Source: Escherichia coli (GTDB taxonomy: Bacteria > Pseudomonadota > Gammaproteobacteria > Enterobacterales > Enterobacteriaceae). From it: a stretch of DNA of 64,000 nt. Below the pieces are notes generated by a model. That model made no database searches, had not been told where the DNA came from, and saw only the letters and a program-made list of their open reading frames with translations. Both the position numbers and the translations under genes were made by a program. The number at the start of each line of letters is the position of its first letter. Position 1 is the stretch's first letter. Positions 20,501 to 64,000 of this stretch are shown piece by piece. The stretch lies in NCBI RefSeq assembly GCF_051903065.1, contig NZ_CP178438.1; one strand, 5' to 3'.

Positions 20501-21196
20501 ATGAGAACAGGATGTGAACCGACCCGGTTTGGTAATGAAGCTAAGACCATTATTCACGGTGATGCCCTTGCCGAACTTAAAAAGCTACCTACTGAAAGCG
20601 TCGATCTGATCTTTGCCGACCCACCGTATAACATCGGTAAAAATTTTGATGGTCTGATCGAAGCCTGGAAAGAAGATCTGTTTATCGACTGGCTGTTAGA
20701 AGTGATTGCAGAGTGCCACCGCGTTCTGAAAAAGCAGGGCAGCATGTACATCATGAACAGTACGGAAAACATGCCCTTTATCGATCTCCAGTGCCGCAAG
20801 CTTTTTACCATCAAAAGTCGCATCGTCTGGTCATATGACAGTTCTGGAGTGCAGGCGAAAAAACACTACGGCTCCATGTACGAACCCATCCTGATGATGG
20901 TGAAAGACGCAAAGAACTACACATTCAACGGTGATGCTATTCTGGTAGAAGCCAAAACCGGATCGCAGCGCGCGTTGATCGATTATCGCAAAAATCCTCC
21001 ACAGCCTTACAATCATCAAAAAGTACCGGGTAACGTCTGGGATTTTCCGCGCGTGCGTTATTTGATGGATGAATATGAGAACCACCCGACGCAAAAACCG
21101 GAAGCCTTACTGAAACGCATTATTCTCGCCTCTTCCAACCCAGGCGATATCGTTCTCGACCCGTTTGCCGGTGATGCTGCCAACTTACTGATTTAG
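20501..21196 (+). pseudogene. yhdJ: DNA adenine methyltransferase YhdJ, 3'-truncated by IS1; reading frame runs 8 codons into the IS1 inverted repeat to a TAG
   Basis: MRTGCEPTRFGNEAKTIIHGDAL...DPPY motif...DPFAG then GDAANLLI* encoded by the IS1 end (GGTGATGCTGCCAACTTACTGATTTAG); native YhdJ is ~294 aa by recall. Confidence 0.8.
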
Positions 21197-21224
21197 TGTA
21201 TGATGGTGTTTTTGAGGTGCTCCA

Positions 21225-21500
21225 GTGGCTTCTGTTTCTATCAGCTGTCCCTCCTGTTCAGCTACTGACGGGGTGGTGCGTAACGGCAAAAGCACCGCCG
21301 GACATCAGCGCTATCTCTGCTCTCACTGCCGTAAAACATGGCAACTGCAGTTCACTTACACCGCTTCTCAACCCGGTACGCACCAGAAAATCATTGATAT
21401 GGCCATGAATGGCGTTGGATGCCGGGCAACAGCCCGCATTATGGGCGTTGGCCTCAACACGATTTTACGTCACTTAAAAAACTCAGGCCGCAGTCGGTAA
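21225..21500 (+). CDS. insA: IS1 InsA (transposition inhibitor / N-terminal part of transposase)
   Basis: 91-aa [40 protein letters not shown] with GTG start. Confidence 0.9.
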
Positions 21501-21922
21501 CCTCGCGCATACAGCCGGGCAGTGACGTCATCGTCTGCGCGGAAATGGACGAACAGTGGGGCTATGTCGGGGCTAAATCGCGCCAGCGCTGGCTGTTTTA
21601 CGCGTATGACAGGCTCCGGAAGACGGTTGTTGCGCACGTATTCGGTGAACGCACTATGGCGACGCTGGGGCGTCTTATGAGCCTGCTGTCACCCTTTGAC
21701 GTGGTGATATGGATGACGGATGGCTGGCCGCTGTATGAATCCCGCCTGAAGGGAAAGCTGCACGTAATCAGCAAGCGATATACGCAGCGAATTGAGCGGC
21801 ATAACCTGAATCTGAGGCAGCACCTGGCACGGCTGGGACGGAAGTCGCTGTCGTTCTCAAAATCGGTGGAGCTGCATGACAAAGTCATCGGGCATTATCT
21901 GAACATAAAACACTATCAATAA
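21419..21922 (+). CDS. insB: IS1 InsB reading frame (expressed as InsAB' transposase by -1 frameshift at the A6C motif near 21476)
   Basis: 167-aa ORF in the -1 frame relative to insA; TTAAAAAACTC slippery motif at 21474-21484. Confidence 0.8.
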
Positions 21923-22015
21923 GTTGGAGTCATTACCCGGTGATAAAATGGCATTCAGCTCGTTAATAAGAGAGTTAACTTATTAAGCGTTAGCGTTTAT
22001 TACTGAGGTAACACC

Positions 22016-27049: not shown

Positions 27050-27169
27050 ATGTCTGGCAGTTCCCTACTCTCGCATGGGGAGTCCCCACACTACCATCGG
27101 CGCTACGGCGTTTCACTTCTGAGTTCGGCATGGGGTCAGGTGGGACCACCGCGCTACTGCCGCCAGACA
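27050..27169 (-). rRNA. rrfF: 5S rRNA, distal copy
   Basis: 120-nt match to reverse complement of E. coli 5S rRNA, with a few variant positions. Confidence 0.9.
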
Positions 27170-27206
27170 AATTCTTTTCTAATCTGCCGAACTTTAACCT
27201 AAAAAG

Positions 27207-27282
27207 TGGTGCTGATACCCAGAGTCGAACTGGGGACCTCACCCTTACCAAGGGTGCGCTCTACCAACTGAGCCATATCAGC
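27207..27282 (-). tRNA. thrV: tRNA-Thr
   Basis: Reverse complement reads GCTGATATGGCTCAGTTGGTAGAGCGCACCCTTGGTAAGGGTGAGGTCCCCAGTTCGACTCTGGGTATCAGCACCA (76 nt). Confidence 0.9.
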
Positions 27283-27294
27283 ACGCTAAATTTG

Positions 27295-27414
27295 ATGCCT
27301 GGCAGTTCCCTACTCTCGCATGGGGAGACCCCACACTACCATCGGCGCTACGGCGTTTCACTTCTGAGTTCGGCATGGGGTCAGGTGGGACCACCGCGCT
27401 ACGGCCGCCAGGCA
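27295..27414 (-). rRNA. rrfD: 5S rRNA
   Basis: 120-nt match to reverse complement of E. coli 5S rRNA. Confidence 0.9.
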
Positions 27415-27506
27415 AATTCTGTTTTATCAGACCGCTTCTGCGTTCTGATTTAATCTGTATCAGGCCGAAAATCTTCTCTCATCCGCCAAAACAGCTTCGG
27501 CGTTGT

Positions 27507-30409
<2,903 letters not shown>

Positions 30410-30592
30410 TCACAACCCGAAGATGTTTCTTTCGATTCATCATCGTGTTGCGAAAATTTGAGAGACTCACGAACAACTCTCGTTGTTCAGTGTTTCAATT
30501 TTCAGCTTGATCCAGATTTTTAAAGAGCAAAACTTCGCAGTGAACCTTTGCAGGTACACTCTGAAGTATTTTTTATTTAATCACTACAGAGA

Positions 30593-30668
30593 TGGTGGAG
30601 CTATGCGGGATCGAACCGCAGACCTCCTGCGTGCAAAGCAGGCGCTCTCCCAGCTGAGCTATAGCCCC
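30593..30668 (-). tRNA. alaU: tRNA-Ala (16S-23S spacer)
   Basis: Reverse complement reads GGGGCTATAGCTCAGCTGGGAGAGCGCCTGCTTTGCACGCAGGAGGTCTGCGGTTCGATCCCGCATAGCTCCACCA. Confidence 0.9.
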
Positions 30669-30710
30669 ATAACATGTAGTTAAAACCTCTTCAAATTTGC
30701 CGTGCAAATT

Positions 30711-30787
<77 letters not shown>

Positions 30788-30855
30788 GTAGAGGTTTTAC
30801 TGCTCATTTTCATCAGACAATCTGTGTGAGCACTGCAAAGTACGCTTCTTTAAGG

Positions 30856-32397
<1,542 letters not shown>

Positions 32398-38840: not shown

Positions 38841-40130
38841 ATGAAAAAACAACGTAATTTACGTAGCATGGCGGCCCAGGCCGTTGAACAAGTCGTCGAG
38901 CAAGGGCAATCATTAAGCAACATTCTGCCACCGCTCCAGCAAAAAGTTTCCGATAAAGACAAAGCACTTCTTCAAGAGTTGTGCTTTGGCGTACTGCGTA
39001 CGCTTTCGCAGTTAGACTGGCTGATTAATAAGTTAATGGCCCGTCCGATGACCGGCAAACAGCGGACCGTGCATTACCTGATTATGGTTGGTTTGTATCA
39101 ACTGCTTTATACCCGCATTCCACCTCATGCTGCGCTGGCTGAAACGGTTGAAGGCGCTATCGCAATTAAGCGTCCGCAACTTAAAGGGTTGATAAACGGT
39201 GTATTACGCCAGTTCCAGCGTCAGCAAGAAGAGTTATTAGCCGAGTTTAATGCCAGTGATGCACGTTATCTGCATCCTTCCTGGTTGCTGAAGCGTCTGC
39301 AAAAAGCGTATCCAGAGCAGTGGCAATCCATCGTCGAAGCCAATAACCAGCGTCCGCCAATGTGGCTGCGCGTTAATCGTACGCATCATTCCCGCGACAG
39401 CTGGCTTGCATTGCTGGATGAAGCAGGAATGAAAGGTTTCCCGCATGCGGATTACCCTGATGCTGTACGTCTGGAAACACCTGCACCTGTTCATGCGCTA
39501 CCTGGTTTTGAAGACGGATGGGTTACCGTTCAGGATGCATCAGCACAAGGTTGCATGACCTGGCTTGCGCCACAAAACGGTGAACACATTTTGGATCTTT
39601 GTGCCGCCCCCGGCGGTAAAACAACGCATATCCTTGAGGTGGCACCAGAAGCGCAGGTTGTTGCGGTTGATATCGACGAACAGCGCCTCTCTCGGGTTTA
39701 CGACAATTTAAAACGCCTTGGTATGAAGGCGACCGTGAAACAAGGTGATGGCCGTTACCCTTCTCAATGGTGTGGCGAGCAACAGTTTGATCGCATTTTA
39801 TTAGATGCGCCTTGTTCAGCAACCGGTGTGATTCGTCGCCATCCGGATATTAAATGGTTACGTCGCGATCGCGATATCCCAGAACTCGCGCAATTGCAGT
39901 CTGAAATTCTCGACGCCATTTGGCCGCATTTAAAATCCGGTGGAACCCTGGTCTATGCCACCTGTTCGGTGTTACCGGAAGAGAATAGCCTGCAGATTAA
40001 AGCCTTTTTGCAACGTACCGCTGATGCCGAACTTTGCGAAACAGGAACACCAGAGCAACCGGGTAAACAAAATCTGCCTGGTGCCGAAGAGGGCGACGGC
40101 TTCTTTTACGCTAAGCTAATCAAAAAGTGA
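38841..40130 (+). CDS. rsmB: 16S rRNA m5C967 methyltransferase RsmB
   Basis: ATG at 38841 gives [27 protein letters not shown] (429 aa). Confidence 0.9.
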
Positions 40131-40151
40131 TGAGATAACGGGTCGCGACTG

Positions 40152-41528
40152 ATGAAAATTATCATTCTGGGTGCCGGCCAGGTTGGCGGCACACTGGCGG
40201 AAAACCTGGTTGGCGAGAACAACGATATTACTGTTGTCGATACCAACGGTGAGCGTCTGCGGACCTTACAGGATAAATTTGACCTGCGGGTCGTGCAGGG
40301 GCATGGCTCTCATCCACGCGTATTGCGGGAGGCAGGTGCCGACGACGCCGATATGCTGGTTGCTGTAACCAGTTCAGATGAAACCAATATGGTTGCCTGC
40401 CAGGTAGCCTACTCACTTTTCAACACCCCTAATCGCATCGCTCGTATCCGCTCACCAGACTACGTGCGCGATGCCGATAAGCTATTTCATTCAGATGCTG
40501 TGCCGATTGATCATCTGATCGCACCAGAGCAGTTGGTTATCGATAATATTTACCGACTGATTGAGTATCCCGGCGCATTGCAGGTGGTGAACTTCGCTGA
40601 GGGTAAAGTCAGCCTGGCTGTGGTTAAAGCCTATTATGGCGGCCCGCTGATTGGTAATGCACTTTCGACCATGCGCGAACATATGCCACATATCGATACT
40701 CGTGTGGCAGCAATTTTCCGCCACGATCGCCCCATTCGTCCGCAAGGTTCGACCATTGTTGAAGCTGGTGATGAAGTGTTCTTTATTGCCGCTTCACAGC
40801 ATATCCGCGCGGTGATGAGTGAATTACAGCGACTAGAAAAACCGTATAAGCGGATCATGCTGGTTGGTGGCGGTAATATCGGTGCAGGGCTGGCGCGTCG
40901 TCTGGAAAAAGATTACAGCGTTAAACTCATCGAACGTAATCAGCAGCGCGCTGCCGAACTGGCGGAAAAGTTACAGAATACGATCGTCTTTTTTGGTGAT
41001 GCGTCGGATCAAGAACTGCTGGCCGAAGAACATATCGATCAAGTTGATCTGTTTATTGCCGTCACCAACGATGACGAGGCCAATATCATGTCCGCCATGC
41101 TTGCCAAACGTATGGGTGCGAAAAAGGTGATGGTATTGATCCAGCGTCGCGCTTATGTGGATCTGGTTCAGGGGAGCGTAATCGATATTGCGATTTCACC
41201 ACAACAAGCAACTATTTCTGCGTTGCTTAGCCATGTGCGAAAAGCAGATATTGTTGGTGTTTCCTCATTGCGCCGCGGCGTAGCAGAAGCTATTGAAGCC
41301 GTTGCTCACGGTGATGAAAGCACCTCACGCGTTGTCGGCAGAGTCATTGACGAAATCAAGCTACCGCCAGGAACGATTATTGGAGCGGTGGTACGTGGAA
41401 ACGACGTGATGATTGCCAATGACAATCTGCGCATTGAGCAAGGCGATCACGTAATTATGTTCCTCACAGATAAAAAATTTATTACCGACGTCGAAAGACT
41501 CTTCCAGCCAAGCCCTTTCTTCTTGTAA
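40152..41528 (+). CDS. trkA: Trk potassium uptake system NAD-binding protein TrkA
   Basis: 458-aa [33 protein letters not shown], tandem Rossmann/RCK domains. Confidence 0.9.
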
Positions 41529-41530
41529 TT

Positions 41531-41556
41531 AATAAGGCGTCTAATGACGCCTTATT
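41531..41556 (+). terminator. Candidate terminator after trkA
   Basis: aataaggcgtctaatgacgccttatt inverted repeat followed by T-rich tract. Confidence 0.5.
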
Positions 41557-41657
41557 ATTTCCCTTTGATTATCAAGGATTAATTAAATTCATTCCTGGCA
41601 GGAAAATGGCTTAACATTTGTTAGACTTATGGTTGTCGGCTTCATAGGGAGAATAAC

Positions 41658-42068
41658 ATGAGCATTATTAAAGAATTTCGCGAATTTGCGATGCGCGGGA
41701 ACGTGGTGGATTTGGCGGTGGGTGTCATTATCGGTGCGGCATTCGGGAAGATTGTATCTTCACTGGTTGCCGATATCATCATGCCACCTCTGGGCTTATT
41801 AATTGGCGGGATCGACTTTAAACAGTTTGCTGTCACGCTACGCGATGCGCAAGGGGATATCCCTGCTGTTGTGATGCATTACGGTGTCTTCATTCAAAAC
41901 GTCTTTGATTTTCTGATTGTGGCCTTTGCCATCTTTATGGCGATTAAGCTAATCAACAAACTGAATCGGAAAAAAGAAGAACCAGCAGCCGCACCTGCAC
42001 CAACTAAAGAAGAAGTATTACTGACAGAAATTCGTGATTTGCTGAAAGAGCAGAATAACCGCTCTTAA
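41658..42068 (+). CDS. mscL: Large-conductance mechanosensitive channel
   Basis: 136-aa [57 protein letters not shown]. Confidence 0.95.
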
Positions 42069-42283
42069 CAAGCGCCTGAAAGCAGAAGACCAGTGGTAAA
42101 AAAGTGATTTACTTTCTTGCCACTGGCCTCCCAGTTGCCCCGATTGCCATGTTTTCCTTTTCGCATGTAACTGCCTTTCCCCTTCTTATTTTTCTCTACG
42201 CGCTGTCGGAATAAGGGATCATGTAGTAATGCTTCTATCGCATTATCCTTTATCTGCCCTTTAGTATGCTGATATCGGCTCAT
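42065..42283 (-). CDS. arfA: Alternative ribosome-rescue factor A
   Basis: 72-aa [52 protein letters not shown]; 3' end overlaps mscL 3' end by 4 nt. Confidence 0.85.
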
Positions 42284-42338
42284 AAAAACTCCAGTTGGTT
42301 ATTTAACGGCGCGAGTGTAATCCTGCCAGTGCAAAAAA

Positions 42339-42764
42339 TCAACAGCCACTCTTAACGCCAGTTGCTCCTTGTTCAAGAGCTTCAAGAATCGAGCAATAAA
42401 CACTGCTATGGGCAGTCCCACAACAGGCATCGTTAAGGCGTTGCAAGGAACGCTGCATACTCTGCAACTCGGCTATCCGTGCTTCGACTTCCTGCAATCT
42501 TTCCTGCACAATGCCTTTTGACTCCTGACAGGTATGGTGTTCAGGATCGATGCGGATCGACAGCAACTCGCGGATCGACTCCAGACTGAAACCTAGTTGT
42601 CTGGCATGGCGGATAAATTTCAATCGCTGGAGATCGCTTTCGGTATACAGGCGAAACCCACCTTCGGTACGCACTTCATGCTCCATCATCTGCTGCTTTT
42701 CGTAATAACGAATCGTGTCGGGTGTTACTTCCGCCATTTTTGCCAGCTCACCAATGCGATACAT
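42339..42764 (-). CDS. zntR: Zn(II)-responsive MerR-family regulator ZntR
   Basis: Start at internal ATG gives MYRIGELAKMAEVTPDTIRYYEKQQMMEHEVRTEGGFRLY (141 aa). Confidence 0.85.
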   Translation of the reverse strand: MYRIGELAKMAEVTPDTIRYYEKQQMMEHEVRTEGGFRLYTESDLQRLKFIRHARQLGFSLESIRELLSIRIDPEHHTCQESKGIVQERLQEVEARIAELQSMQRSLQRLNDACCGTAHSSVYCSILEALEQGATGVKSGC

Positions 42765-42774
42765 ACATACTCCA

Positions 42775-43143
42775 CTAGTTATCGTTGATTTTGTCCAACA
42801 ACTTGTCAGCATAATCGCCGCGTAAAAAATCGGTACTCAATCCAGCTTGTCGCAGCTTCAATTCCAGTAATGACAATCGACGGCTAACCTCTTGATATTG
42901 CGGATCATCGTGACGGATACCTCTCAGGATATCCAGAAGCTGAATTGCTTCCCTCCGCTGCTCAAGTTCTGGCGGTAAGCAACCGGCATTCTTCAGCAAG
43001 CGATACCCCGCACGTAATTCCGGTGGCACATGAGAATCATCATCCAGTATCAATGGTTCGCCGCTACCTGCCAGGTTATCAAACTCACCTTTCGCTTGCG
43101 CTTCTGCTATATGACGCTCTGCCCACTGGTCAAGTAACCACAT
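42775..43143 (-). CDS. yhdN: DUF1992 protein YhdN
   Basis: 122-aa ORF MWLLDQWAERHIAEAQAKGEFDNLAGSGEPL. Confidence 0.8.
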   Translation of the reverse strand: MWLLDQWAERHIAEAQAKGEFDNLAGSGEPLILDDDSHVPPELRAGYRLLKNAGCLPPELEQRREAIQLLDILRGIRHDDPQYQEVSRRLSLLELKLRQAGLSTDFLRGDYADKLLDKINDN

Positions 43144-43209
43144 AAATACTCCAGGGGATGAACAAAAAGAGTACAGCTATTGTAGATAAGTGGGGATGCT
43201 ACGGGTATA

Positions 43210-43237
43210 AAAAAACCCGCCGGGGCGGGTTTTTTTA
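43210..43237 (-). terminator. Rho-independent terminator after rplQ (end of alpha operon)
   Basis: aaaaaacccgccggggcgggttttttt: GC hairpin with flanking A/T runs on both sides. Confidence 0.65.
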
Positions 43238-43249
43238 CGTTGCTTCAGA

Positions 43250-43657
<408 letters not shown>

Positions 43658-43673
43658 TTAACCTGTGATCCGG

Positions 43674-44663
43674 TTACTCGTCAGCGATGCTTGCCGGTGG
43701 CCAGTTTTCCAGGCGCATGCCCAGAGACAGTCCACGGGAAGCCAGCACGTCTTTAATCTCAGTAAGAGATTTTTTACCAAGGTTAGGCGTTTTAAGGAGC
43801 TCAACCTCGGTACGTTGTACCAGATCACCGATATAGTGGATAGCTTCTGCTTTAAGGCAGTTAGCAGAGCGGACAGTCAATTCCAGATCGTCAACAGGGC
43901 GCAGCAGGATCGGATCGAACTCTGGTTTCTCTTCTTTCACTTCAGGCTGACGTACATCACGTAAGTCAACGAAAGCTTCCAGTTGTTCAGCCAGAATGGT
44001 TGCCGCACGACGAATCGCCTCTTCAGGATCGATTGTGCCGTTGGTTTCCATTTCGATGACCAGCTTGTCCAGGTCGGTACGCTGTTCTACACGCGCTGCT
44101 TCAACATTGTAGGCAATACGCTCCACAGGGCTGTAGCATGCGTCGACCAGCAGACGGCCGATTGGGCGCTCATCTTCTTCCGAATGAATTCGGGTAGAAG
44201 CCGGCACATAACCACGACCGCGCTGAACTTTGATACGCATGCTAATAGACGCGTTCTCATCGGTCAGGTGGCAGATCACGTGCTGCGGCTTGACGATTTC
44301 GACATCACCGTCGTGGGTGATATCGGCTGCAGTCACAGGGCCAATGCCAGATTTATTCAAGGTAAGAATAACTTCATCTTTGCCCTGAACTCTCACCGCC
44401 AGCCCTTTCAGGTTGAGCAGGATTTCCAGGATATCTTCCTGAACGCCTTCTTTGGTGCTGTACTCATGTAGTACACCATCAATCTCAACCTCGGTCACCG
44501 CGCAACCCGGCATCGATGAGAGCAGAATACGGCGCAGTGCGTTACCCAGAGTATGGCCAAAGCCACGCTCTAAAGGCTCAAGGGTCACCTTGGCGTGCGT
44601 CGAACTCACTTGCTCGATATCAACCAGGCGCGGTTTTAGAAACTCTGTCACAGAACCCTGCAT
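43674..44663 (-). CDS. rpoA: RNA polymerase alpha subunit
   Basis: 329-aa [56 protein letters not shown]. Confidence 0.95.
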
Positions 44664-45748: not shown

Positions 45749-46114
<366 letters not shown>

Positions 46115-46204
46115 CTACTATTTAATATGTACGTTCCATGCTGAAAAGCCCGTTTTCAGGATACTCAAATGGAAACGCACAGACATACAAAAGATTGGCT
46201 GGCT

Positions 46205-56592: not shown

Positions 56593-57075
<483 letters not shown>

Positions 57076-57081
57076 CCGCGC

Positions 57082-57109
57082 ATTATACGCAAATCTGAGC
57101 CTGACGCAA
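57082..57109 (-). promoter_or_regulatory. S10 operon promoter (-35 TTGCGT, 16-bp spacer, -10 TATAAT, GCGCGGG discriminator)
   Basis: rc of 57082-57109 reads TTGCGTCAGGCTCAGATTTGCGTATAAT followed by GCGCGGGC. Confidence 0.65.
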
Positions 57110-57282
57110 GCATCGGGCAGAAATTAATCGCAACGCGCAGATTGCGAGCTGCATTCCACGAAATTTGTAAGGTTGTGAAGATAGCGTTTTTCACCGGAAT
57201 CAGGTTAACAAATCAGCGCTCTCTCTGTTGCTGAGCATCCGGAGTTATTCGATGGTGATACTCCAATTACAGAGGATGTTTT

Positions 57283-57750
57283 ATGGACACTACCCTTCCC
57301 TTTCTAATTTTGTACGCTTGTTTATCAGCCCTACTTTTTTTCTGGGATGCAAAGCATGGCTTGTTACCTGACAGATTTACGTGCCCGTTACTCTGGTCAG
57401 GTCTTTTGTTCTATCAAGTTTGTCATCCTGATGGTTTAGCCGATGCGTTATGGGGGGCAATTATTGGTTACGGCACATTCGCTGTCATTTACTGGGGGTA
57501 TCGCATACTGCGCCATAAAGAAGGATTAGGCTATGGTGATGTGAAGTTTCTCGCCGCCCTTGGCGCCTGGCATTCATGGGCCTTCTTACCACGACTGGTT
57601 TTCCTTGCTGCCTCATTCGCTTGCGGAGCCGTAGTTATTGGTCTGCTCATGAGAGGAAAAGAATCATTAAAAAACCCGCTGCCTTTTGGGCCATTTCTGG
57701 CGGCTGCGGGTTTCGTTATAGGCTGGGATAGTTTGCTGATAGGCCGTTAA
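57283..57750 (+). CDS. Type IV prepilin peptidase-like membrane protein (peptidase A24 family), short form (155 aa); probably corresponds to the terminal gspO gene of the T2SS locus found here in K-12
   Basis: 155-aa hydrophobic ORF with LLPDRF and [18 protein letters not shown] motifs (the two catalytic-Asp motifs of prepilin peptidases); RBS GAGGA 8 nt upstream; convergent with bfr. Confidence 0.7.
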
Positions 57751-58223
57751 TCTTTAACTTTAATTTGTGATTGCAGGTAATTTTGTAGGCCGATTTTACC
57801 GATGAGATCCAGTTCAGTTTCGAGCCAGTCGATATGACCTTCTTCATCGGCAAGGATCTCGATCATCATATCGCGGCTAACATAGTCATGAACGCTGTCG
57901 GCATACGCGATAGCCTCACGCAGATCCTTCGCACCTTCCAGCTCTAATCGCAGGTCGGATTGCAGCATCTCTTCGACATCTTCACCGATCCCTAGCTTAC
58001 CTAAATCCTGTAAGTTGGGGATTCCTTCTAAAAACAAAATACGCTCGATATATTTATCAGCGTGTTTCATCTCATCGATGGATTCATGGTATTCGACGTC
58101 ATTAAGACGCATCAGTCCCCAGTTTTTAAACATCCGGGCATGGAGAAAATACTGATTGATTGCGACAAGCTCATTTCCCAATAGTTTATTGAGATAATTT
58201 ATGATTTTAACATCACCTTTCAT
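57747..58223 (-). CDS. bfr: Bacterioferritin
   Basis: 158-aa [59 protein letters not shown]. Confidence 0.9.
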
Positions 58224-58295
58224 TTTATAGTCCCTCCGCTTCCACTATTAGAGCGTAGATGGGGCTAGCGGGATGTCAAAAAATAAGCGTGGGCT

Positions 58296-58490
58296 TCAGG
58301 CAATCTCTTTAAATTCTGGCATCTGCATCAACTCGTCCTGCATCACTTCGCGCGCGGCGCGAATGCACTTACCACATTGATTTCCCACAGGAATAAACTT
58401 ACGCAATTGTTGGAAAGATTGCGGATGAAACTGACGGACTGCCTGGCGAATTTTTTTGTCACTTACACCATTACACAAACAAACGTACAT
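58296..58490 (-). CDS. bfd: Bacterioferritin-associated ferredoxin
   Basis: 64-aa ORF MYVCLCNGVSDKKIRQAVRQF...GNQCGKC with [2Fe-2S] Cys motif. Confidence 0.9.
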   Translation of the reverse strand: MYVCLCNGVSDKKIRQAVRQFHPQSFQQLRKFIPVGNQCGKCIRAAREVMQDELMQMPEFKEIA

Positions 58491-58523
58491 GATTGCTCCC
58501 GTTCAAATTCTGCGCAAAGTGTA

Positions 58524-58546
58524 AATGAGAATAGTTATGATTACAA
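58524..58546 (-). promoter_or_regulatory. Candidate Fur box upstream of bfd
   Basis: rc reads TGTAATCATAACTATTCTCATT, a partial match to GATAATGATAATCATTATC; bfd is Fur-regulated by established knowledge. Confidence 0.35.
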
Positions 58547-58622
58547 TAGCACAGTTTTATTTGCGCCATAGTTCAGCGAGCAAAATTACGACTAAATATT
58601 TCGAGCTCAAATTACGGGCAGC

Positions 58623-58647
58623 AAAAAGGGCGCCGAAGCGCCCTTTT
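58623..58647 (-). terminator. Rho-independent terminator after tufA
   Basis: Minus-strand transcript: GGGCGCTTCGGCGCCC hairpin followed by TTTTT. Confidence 0.7.
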
Positions 58648-58672
58648 CAATTCAAAACTAATTAACGTGTAA

Positions 58673-59914
<1,242 letters not shown>

Positions 59915-59927
59915 TTAACCCTTAGGC

Positions 59928-62054
<2,127 letters not shown>

Positions 62055-62138
62055 TTATCTTTTAGGCGTTCAATTTAAGTAGCCCAAAGCGGGCTGCTTA
62101 CTGGAAGCGCCCGCCTGGTGACTAAAACTCCGAAGGGA

Positions 62139-62624
<486 letters not shown>

Positions 62625-62705
62625 TTAATTCAGGATTGTCCAAAACTCTACGAGTTTAGTTTGACATTTAAGTTAAAACGTTTGGCCTTACTTAACGGAG
62701 AACCA

Positions 62706-63183
<478 letters not shown>

Positions 63184-63205
63184 GAAATATACAACGATCC
63201 CGCCA

Positions 63206-63493
63206 TCACCAGGCCATCTGGCTGGAGTGCTTAACCGTAAGTCTGACGAAATCAGTATAGTCAATGGGAATGATGTCGTTCGAAATTTGACCAGTCAAAC
63301 CGCGGGCAATAAGGTCTTCGTTCAGGGCATAGACCTTAATGGGGGCATTACGCAGACTTTCAAGGTAGCGGTTACCGTCAACTGCGGCAGTTACGCCATC
63401 TTGCAATAATAGCAGTTCGTCGCCTTCACTGAGCAGACGCAGCAGCGCAGCAAAATCCGTCAGCCAGGGTGAACGATGTAACGTGTGCAGCAT
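63206..63493 (-). CDS. tusB: Sulfur relay protein TusB
   Basis: 95-aa [37 protein letters not shown]. Confidence 0.9.
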
Positions 63494-63500
63494 AAACGCC

Positions 63501-63859
63501 TCAAAACCTCAAAATAACATCGTAGTTGGCGAGTTCGCGGCGTAAGGCATCTGCTTCGAGCGGCGTGGCTTCGACAACAAAGGGGGTCTGCGGATCTAAC
63601 CCGCGTTCGCGCAGTGAAGCCGCACAAACCCAGCACTGTTCAATGTCGTACAGACCCAACAATTTAAAAGTGGCAATGTAATCACGCGCCAGCACTGCAT
63701 CGGGCTTTTGTCCTGGCAGTAGCTGAAAAACGCCATCAGCAATAAAGAAGACGGCCAGCTCGTCAGTTAACGCGGAAGTTGCCAGTAAAGCATCTAAACC
63801 TTCCCGCCCGGCAGCGGTACCATGAGGCACAGTAGAAAAAACAAACGCAATTCGTTTCA

Positions 63860-63860
<1 letters not shown>
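63501..63860 (-). CDS. tusC: Sulfur relay protein TusC
   Basis: 119-aa [42 protein letters not shown]. Confidence 0.9.

Positions 63861-64000
<140 letters not shown>

Follow-up and report, generated by a model that had tools for sequence, protein, structure and literature searches.

Where the genes mscL and arfA of Escherichia coli converge, the last codons of arfA contain an inverted repeat, and this locus raises the question of whether the repeat is a by-product of the protein-coding sequence or an RNA element with a function of its own, and if so, on which of the two strands it is mainly selected. The locus was analyzed within the window, the whole stretch of 64,000 nucleotides of E. coli DNA examined here. 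With a probability estimated at about 0.95, it is the known E. coli arfA–mscL convergent pair with a regulatory hairpin in the arfA 3' frame. The hairpin is real, functional, and already known, and the window carries a copy of the K-12 sequence of this worked-out locus; the mechanism, the RefSeq-annotated cleavage product, and the antisense link to mscL have been known for E. coli from reports of 2011–2023, and the window adds nothing new to them. The anatomy, the fold stability, the identity to K-12, and the conservation and covariation in 80 species come from the present analysis, whereas the cutting by RNase III, the control by tmRNA, and the antisense action are taken from the literature through sequence identity.

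The mscL–arfA locus and its counterpart in K-12

The open reading frames (ORFs) of trkA (40152–41528, +), mscL, arfA, zntR, yhdN, and rplQ were recognized in the window, among which mscL and arfA are arranged tail-to-tail, with a TTAA palindrome common to both stop codons. The gene names arfA and mscL, which had been proposed in an earlier note made from the sequence, were borne out by Pfam and by RefSeq annotation: MscL matched PF01741 (E 2.4e-47), and ArfA matched PF03889 over residues 4–45 only, with a score of 89.5 bits (cutoff 25.5; E 9.2e-26). The PF03889 domain ends at residue 45, upstream of the hairpin. The mscL stop lies 4 nt inside the arfA 3' end, as the same note had described, the two ORFs sharing 42065–42068. 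All the features discussed are listed in Table 1.

A segment of 801 bases around the locus found a match, annotated with mscL, arfA, and zntR, in 5,425 of the 5,426 complete genomes of E. coli. The alignment of 41500–42350 with K-12 MG1655 is gapless, the sequence of 42040–42136 is 100% identical, and neither the hairpin nor either stop codon differs from MG1655. The ArfA protein is also identical (72 of 72 aa), and the only two nucleotide differences within arfA, at 42137 (GGC vs GGG) and 42278 (AGC vs AGU), are both synonymous. At the homologous coordinates, K-12 RefSeq lists arfA, mscL, and the ncRNA yrdG (b4846, "arfA-derived small regulatory RNA"). The hairpin is thus like that of K-12 arfA (yhdL, b4550), being in the same species, in the same gene, and among the same neighbours in the order trkA–mscL–arfA–zntR–yhdN–rplQ, and the window differs from the K-12 RNase III/non-stop switch (Garza-Sanchez 2011; Chadani 2011; Schaub 2012) only by the two synonymous arfA bases. 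Since the hairpin and the stop codons are identical, the biology mapped in K-12 transfers directly to the window.

The allele at 42137 (Gly49, GGC) is rare, 11 of 5,421 E. coli genomes matching the 81-nt query at ≥99% identity; it is located just below the main stem, and in the fold its C pairs with the G at 42083, lengthening the helix by a few pairs. In the region upstream of arfA (42284–42338, −), which overlaps the zntR 3' end, a TTGATT–17 nt–TACACT arrangement was noticed by eye before the start codon; with 8 of 12 positions matched against a threshold of 9, it was not called by the consensus scan.

Table 1. Features of the mscL–arfA locus and other annotated features of the window
Feature	Position	Strand	Description and evidence
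mscL CDS (large-conductance mechanosensitive channel)	41658..42068	+	136 aa; ORF, Pfam, RefSeq annotation in matching E. coli genomes
arfA nominal CDS	42065..42283	−	72 aa; ORF, Pfam ArfA PF03889
CDS overlap TTAA, both stop codons inside	42065..42068	.	4 nt
arfA 3' CDS stem-loop	42081..42139	−	RNase III substrate and premature-termination element; fold, K-12 identity, conservation, PMC10070815
Lower stem of the arfA hairpin, 12 bp	42131–42120 / 42096–42085	−	Fold
C.A mismatch of the arfA hairpin	42119 / 42097	−	Fold
Upper stem of the arfA hairpin, 8 bp	42118–42111 / 42105–42098	−	Fold
Loop of the arfA hairpin, 5 nt	42110–42106	−	Fold
Inferred 5'-arm RNase III cut (arfA nt 165/166)	42118..42119	−	yrdG 5' end, PMC10070815; by sequence identity
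Inferred 3'-arm RNase III cut (arfA nt 189/190)	42094..42095	−	PMC10070815; coordinate arithmetic on identical sequence
arfA-derived sRNA, 54 nt (yrdG in K-12)	42065..42118	−	RefSeq b4846; function in PMC10070815; antisense to mscL 3'UTR
mscL 3'UTR (+1 to +64)	42069..42132	+	Extent from PMC10070815; complementary to arfA 3' CDS
Tentative second small stem-loop in arfA-sense RNA	42046..42066	−	AAGAGCGG-UUAUU-CUGCUCUU; fold and modest covariation
Two tandem naRNA4 (REP-type) copies	1068–1228	−	Ordinary annotated RNA feature
rrnD operon	27052–32397	−	16S, tRNA-Ile, tRNA-Ala, 23S, 5S, tRNA-Thr, second 5S
alpha-operon ribosome-binding-site element	46073–46184	−	Ordinary annotated RNA feature

Structure and conservation of the arfA hairpin

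The repeat pointed out in the earlier note, ccagtgg (42090–42096) and ccactgg (42120–42126), is present at that place, and its assignment to the last ~20 codons of arfA was right, the hairpin covering nt ~145–203, that is, codons ~49–68 of 72. The two heptamers form the core of a bigger inverted repeat with arms of 19 nt (42087–42105 and 42111–42129; 84% complementary, 5-nt gap), which was the only one found in 41900–42400 by the repeat search. Upon folding of the minus strand of the arfA 3' region, which that note had proposed as a check, a stable hairpin was obtained at the K-12 position, located within the ORF, downstream of the PF03889 domain and upstream of the stop codon. The stem-loop is ~20 bp overall and interrupted, four additional pairs being formed at its base beneath a small bulge, and it was retained when the whole arfA transcript region was folded. 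The arfA-sense RNA of 42140–42060 gave a dG of −34.6 kcal/mol as compared with a mean of −20.7 ± 3.3 for dinucleotide-shuffled sequences (z = −4.23), a stability reached by 0 of 200 shuffles, even though a shuffle control of this type exaggerates the significance for related sequences.

For comparison between species, 80 Enterobacteriaceae arfA loci were collected by one scan of species-representative genomes, making 81 loci together with the window. Convergent mscL was found in all 80 orthologous loci, and the same hairpin folds in every one. The two stop codons abut (0 nt) at 36 of the 81 loci and overlap by 4 nt at 20, including the window; a longer overlap of 6 nt was found at one locus, and arfA extends 26–65 nt into mscL at 24. 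The nominal arfA ORF ranges from 68 to 93 aa, its stop codon not being conserved but moving freely, while the hairpin keeps a distance of 17–19 nt to the mscL stop at 71 of the 81 loci. Such a combination of a mobile stop and a fixed hairpin would be expected if the arfA stop codon is rarely used, and is what the non-stop model predicts.

One member of this collection, a contig of 383 nt (NZ_CACSJJ010000125.1; L029) with an arfA/mscL junction, belongs to an assembly labelled Arthrobacter sp., and its ArfA matches the Raoultella terrigena protein (L030) at all residues but one; this contig is most likely an enterobacterial contamination of the Arthrobacter sp. assembly.

In an ungapped 66-column alignment of 77 distinct orthologous sequences, standard pairs occupied 96.3% of the hairpin cells, as compared with 41–63% when the partners were slid by 1–3 columns, and the same helix was recovered by RNAalifold. 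Compensatory changes were observed in 41 cells, mainly at pair 29–35 (C-G in 44 sequences, U-A in 28) and also at pair 30–34. The lower stem is invariant across the orthologues and gives no covariation; a constraint from the opposite strand could contribute to its conservation in part. Synonymous-codon entropy was 0 bits in arfA codons 50–55, 62–64, and 66, and ~0.5–2.4 bits in nearly all of codons 2–49. The zero-variation stem codons are outside the Pfam domain and within a tail dispensable for activity (PMC8012679). Every third codon position in the stem has a first codon position as its pairing partner in the opposite arm, and a silent change in one arm would need a non-silent partner in the other; we infer that this codon-phase pairing is the reason why the stem nucleotides are frozen and why the peptide motifs EASGK and FTTGL seem to be conserved.

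Both arms of the repeat are coding (EASGK and FTTGL) and the invariant lower stem, taken alone, offers no covariation, as might be expected if the repeat had arisen by chance or from coding constraints and did nothing at the RNA level. This reading was, however, excluded by the shuffles, by the disappearance of synonymous variation exactly in the stem codons of a dispensable tail outside the domain, and by the compensatory upper-stem changes (C-G/U-A); direct published biochemistry (PMC10070815) also stands against it, and practically no probability is assigned to it.

The two strands differ in the strength of this fold. The mirror hairpin of the mscL-sense RNA (+) gave −24.5 kcal/mol (z −2.96) and is weaker than the arfA-sense hairpin by 10 kcal/mol over the same 81 nt, because three G.U pairs turn into A.C mismatches. 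The arfA-sense hairpin was the more stable in 40 of 60 distinct orthologues (mean −32.0 vs −29.3 kcal/mol), and in this comparison it was ahead of the mscL sense by 8 kcal/mol in the window. In a wobble count that leaves out two invariant non-Watson–Crick positions (G.U at columns 10-54 and C.A at 21.43), arfA-sense-only G.U wobbles amounted to 80 cells in nine pairs, and mscL-sense-only A.C to 25 cells in three pairs. The wobble bias and the stability altogether suggest that selection acts mainly on the arfA strand; most of the mscL-sense hairpin has been kept as well, as would fit a second role on the plus strand.

The consensus scan for Rho-independent terminators made no call for the large hairpin on either strand, calling in this region only a 5-bp stem at 42074–42060 (−). 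The hairpin is followed by UCUUCUGCUUUC in the arfA sense and by CCUCCCAGUUGC in the mscL sense. An intrinsic or bidirectional terminator was rejected as the main reading, given that the mscL side carries no U tract and that the scan made no call; transcription in the arfA direction has nevertheless been reported to end prematurely at the hairpin (PMC8012679).

It is unlikely that the hairpin works mainly on the plus strand as the 3'-end stem-loop of mscL mRNA, either a terminator or a stabilizer, with its location in arfA being secondary. Such a role would fit the published end of the mscL 3'UTR at ~+64, just beyond the hairpin (PMC10070815), the cleavage of this 3'UTR by RNase III in vitro (PMC10070815), the near-fixed distance between the hairpin and the mscL stop, the conserved C.A mismatch, which in mscL-sense RNA becomes G.U, and the folding of the mscL-sense RNA itself. 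Against it, however, are the deficit of 10 kcal/mol, the 80:25 ratio of variable wobbles toward the arfA sense, the sequence CCUCCCAGUUGCC without U tract that follows the hairpin and the failure of the terminator scan to call it, and the arfA-side function, which is experimentally established (PMC10070815, PMC8012679). A plus-strand function is probably a second, non-exclusive role and not a replacement for the role in arfA.

The tentative second stem-loop of the arfA-sense RNA begins in the TTAA stop overlap and extends into the last mscL codons, with a stability of −10 kcal/mol in a 36-nt context. Its pairing was kept in 84.9% of cells among 73 distinct orthologues, as compared with 52–58% in slid controls, and one pair switches between A-U and G-C (31:21) via synonymous mscL sites. 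The support from covariation is modest; this small stem may be a 3'-end stabilizer or a terminator of the arfA RNA.

No Rfam 15 model hit was detected over 42040–42140, either at E ≤ 1 in the scan of 40000–44000 or at the gathering threshold in the scan of the whole window. The large hairpin is described in papers and yet has no Rfam model, and the cross-species alignment could seed one. This is a point of curation, not a discovery; the usable elements are the mobile stop, the zero synonymous variation, and the wobble bias.

RNase III cleavage and the antisense relation with mscL as known from K-12

The stem-loop of K-12 was placed at arfA nt 146–206, where two RNase III cuts give an mRNA without stop codon, together with a 24-nt product (nt 166–189) and a 30-nt product (from nt 190 through the stop) (PMC10070815); the passages of this paper on arfA cleavage (Morra et al. 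2023) summarize the studies of Garza-Sanchez 2011 and Chadani 2011, and further literature on this locus is PMC3581467. The hairpin alone is sufficient for RNase III cleavage in vitro (PMC10070815). According to a 2021 review, the stem-loop leads either to cutting by RNase III or to a premature end of transcription, and the truncated ArfA, which lacks 17–18 residues, is active and escapes only once trans-translation is overloaded (PMC8012679).

The cut positions were taken from the description in PMC10070815 and from the RefSeq yrdG feature, and were placed by coordinates on the identical sequence, the yrdG 5' end at NC_000913.3 3438484 corresponding to 42118 of the window. The cuts thus placed fall at the junction between the lower and upper stems, beside the C.A mismatch. 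The first cut would end the message after codon 55, in agreement with the length of 72 − 17 = 55 aa (PMC8012679). On the folded model, the reported cuts leave a 3' overhang of 3 nt as compared with the canonical 2 nt, a difference that would be within the mapping error, though the fit is not exact.

The sequence around the K-12 cleavage sites (nt 165/166 and 189/190) is conserved in the window, lying within the segment of 100% identity (42040–42136); the comparison with the mapped K-12 RNase III site, which the earlier note had also suggested, thus gave an identical sequence. The proposal of that note, that the RNase III/non-stop ArfA mechanism is conserved here, is supported by the base-for-base K-12 hairpin, its stable fold, and its conservation among the orthologues, and no sequence evidence against the RNase III/non-stop model of arfA was found.

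In the mechanism proposed for this locus, the minus-strand arfA mRNA would fold into the interrupted stem-loop of ~20 bp (42139–42081), and RNase III would cut both of its arms, after arfA nt 165 and nt 189; without RNase III, transcription would stop at the hairpin instead. By either route, the arfA mRNA would end at ~codon 55 with no stop codon, the ribosomes would stall at this end, and the 55-aa product would normally be tagged by tmRNA–SmpB for degradation. Upon saturation of trans-translation, untagged truncated ArfA would build up and rescue stalled ribosomes with RF2. The hairpin is in this sense a switch that permits the backup rescue factor ArfA only when the capacity of tmRNA is exceeded. 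In addition, the fragment of 42118–42065, whose whole sequence is complementary to the mscL 3'UTR, would act as a cis-encoded antisense RNA shortening the half-life of mscL mRNA, and the arfA element ties ribosome rescue to the expression of the MscL channel.

The antisense part of this scheme rests on published work. The mscL 3'UTR (+1 to +64) of the normal transcript spans the whole hairpin; in the absence of arfA, both the level and the half-life of mscL mRNA were doubled, and the sRNA of the hairpin fragment alone restored them (PMC10070815). The demonstrated regulation is mainly in the direction in which the arfA-derived sRNA destabilizes mscL mRNA (PMC10070815). By homology, the sRNA of Morra et al. 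2023 (PMC10070815) is the same in the window (42065–42118, −), with the same complementarity to mscL +1 to +64 and no sequence differences from their system; the literature search found no paper under the name yrdG. Morra et al. class E. coli as "proximal" and not "overlap," whereas both the RefSeq coding sequences and the window ORFs overlap by 4 nt. The earlier note had suggested that read-through from mscL could produce antisense RNA across the cleavage site: in substance this was correct and has already been published, but read-through is not needed, the 3'UTR from +1 to +64 already covering the site.

The mscL–arfA pair is also included in the ExcludonFinder 2025 list of convergent excludons from E. 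coli RNA-seq (PMC12288877). In the convergent-pair test on the DNA, the two coding sequences overlap by 4 nt, the overlap of the transcripts itself being known from published data. Like the excludons of that list, the window holds a convergent pair, the transcripts of which would overlap at their 3' ends as published for E. coli; unlike most excludons, the mscL–arfA overlap is an intramolecular RNase III hairpin, the cleavage of which removes the stop codon.

Whether the exchange runs in both directions is more doubtful. RNA of the mscL 3'UTR or of read-through could pair with arfA mRNA to form an intermolecular RNase III substrate, altering the site or the efficiency of stop-codon removal, and the supply of ArfA would then depend on mscL transcription (osmolarity, RpoS). 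The two RNAs are perfectly complementary over at least 64 nt including both cleavage sites, RNA-seq coverage led to the listing of the pair as a convergent excludon (PMC12288877), RNase III cutting of the mscL 3'UTR in vitro released a fragment of ~25 nt, and an sRNA of 49 nt from the mscL 3'UTR has been reported (PMC10070815); an mscL-derived RNA acting back on arfA was raised there by the authors as a speculation. Against this direction, an antisense partner is not required for arfA cleavage because the intramolecular hairpin is very stable and sufficient in vitro, and cross-regulation of mscL and arfA at the promoter level was not seen (Fig 6 legend, PMC10070815). Altogether, we consider the two-way exchange improbable. 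If true, it would mean that ribosome-rescue capacity is tuned by the osmotic state, and that the near-absolute invariance of the 12-bp lower stem across the 80 species reflects three constraints at once, from the hairpins of arfA and of mscL and from the duplex between the two RNAs; the small stem at 42046–42066 may then take part in the exchange as a 3'-end stabilizer of the arfA sRNA.

Other features of the window

Outside the mscL–arfA locus, an IS1 element was identified at 21173–21936 (transposase ~21225–21922, +), which replaces the 3' end of K-12 yhdJ, yhdU, envR, acrE, and acrF; the K-12 segment missing at this site is 3412325–3418310, and the AcrEF efflux operon is thus absent. This IS1 is shared by the closest genome, NZ_CP083585.1, in which yhdJ and yhdU are nevertheless retained, so that the window carries an extra adjacent deletion of 490 bp. 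In 57089–64000, downstream of rpsJ (56593–56904, −), the type II secretion cluster of K-12 (gspB/gspA, gspC, and others) is missing, and rpsJ is followed by a prepilin peptidase gene (57283–57750), bfr, bfd, tuf, fusA, rpsG, rpsL, and tusBCD, as in NZ_CP083585.1.
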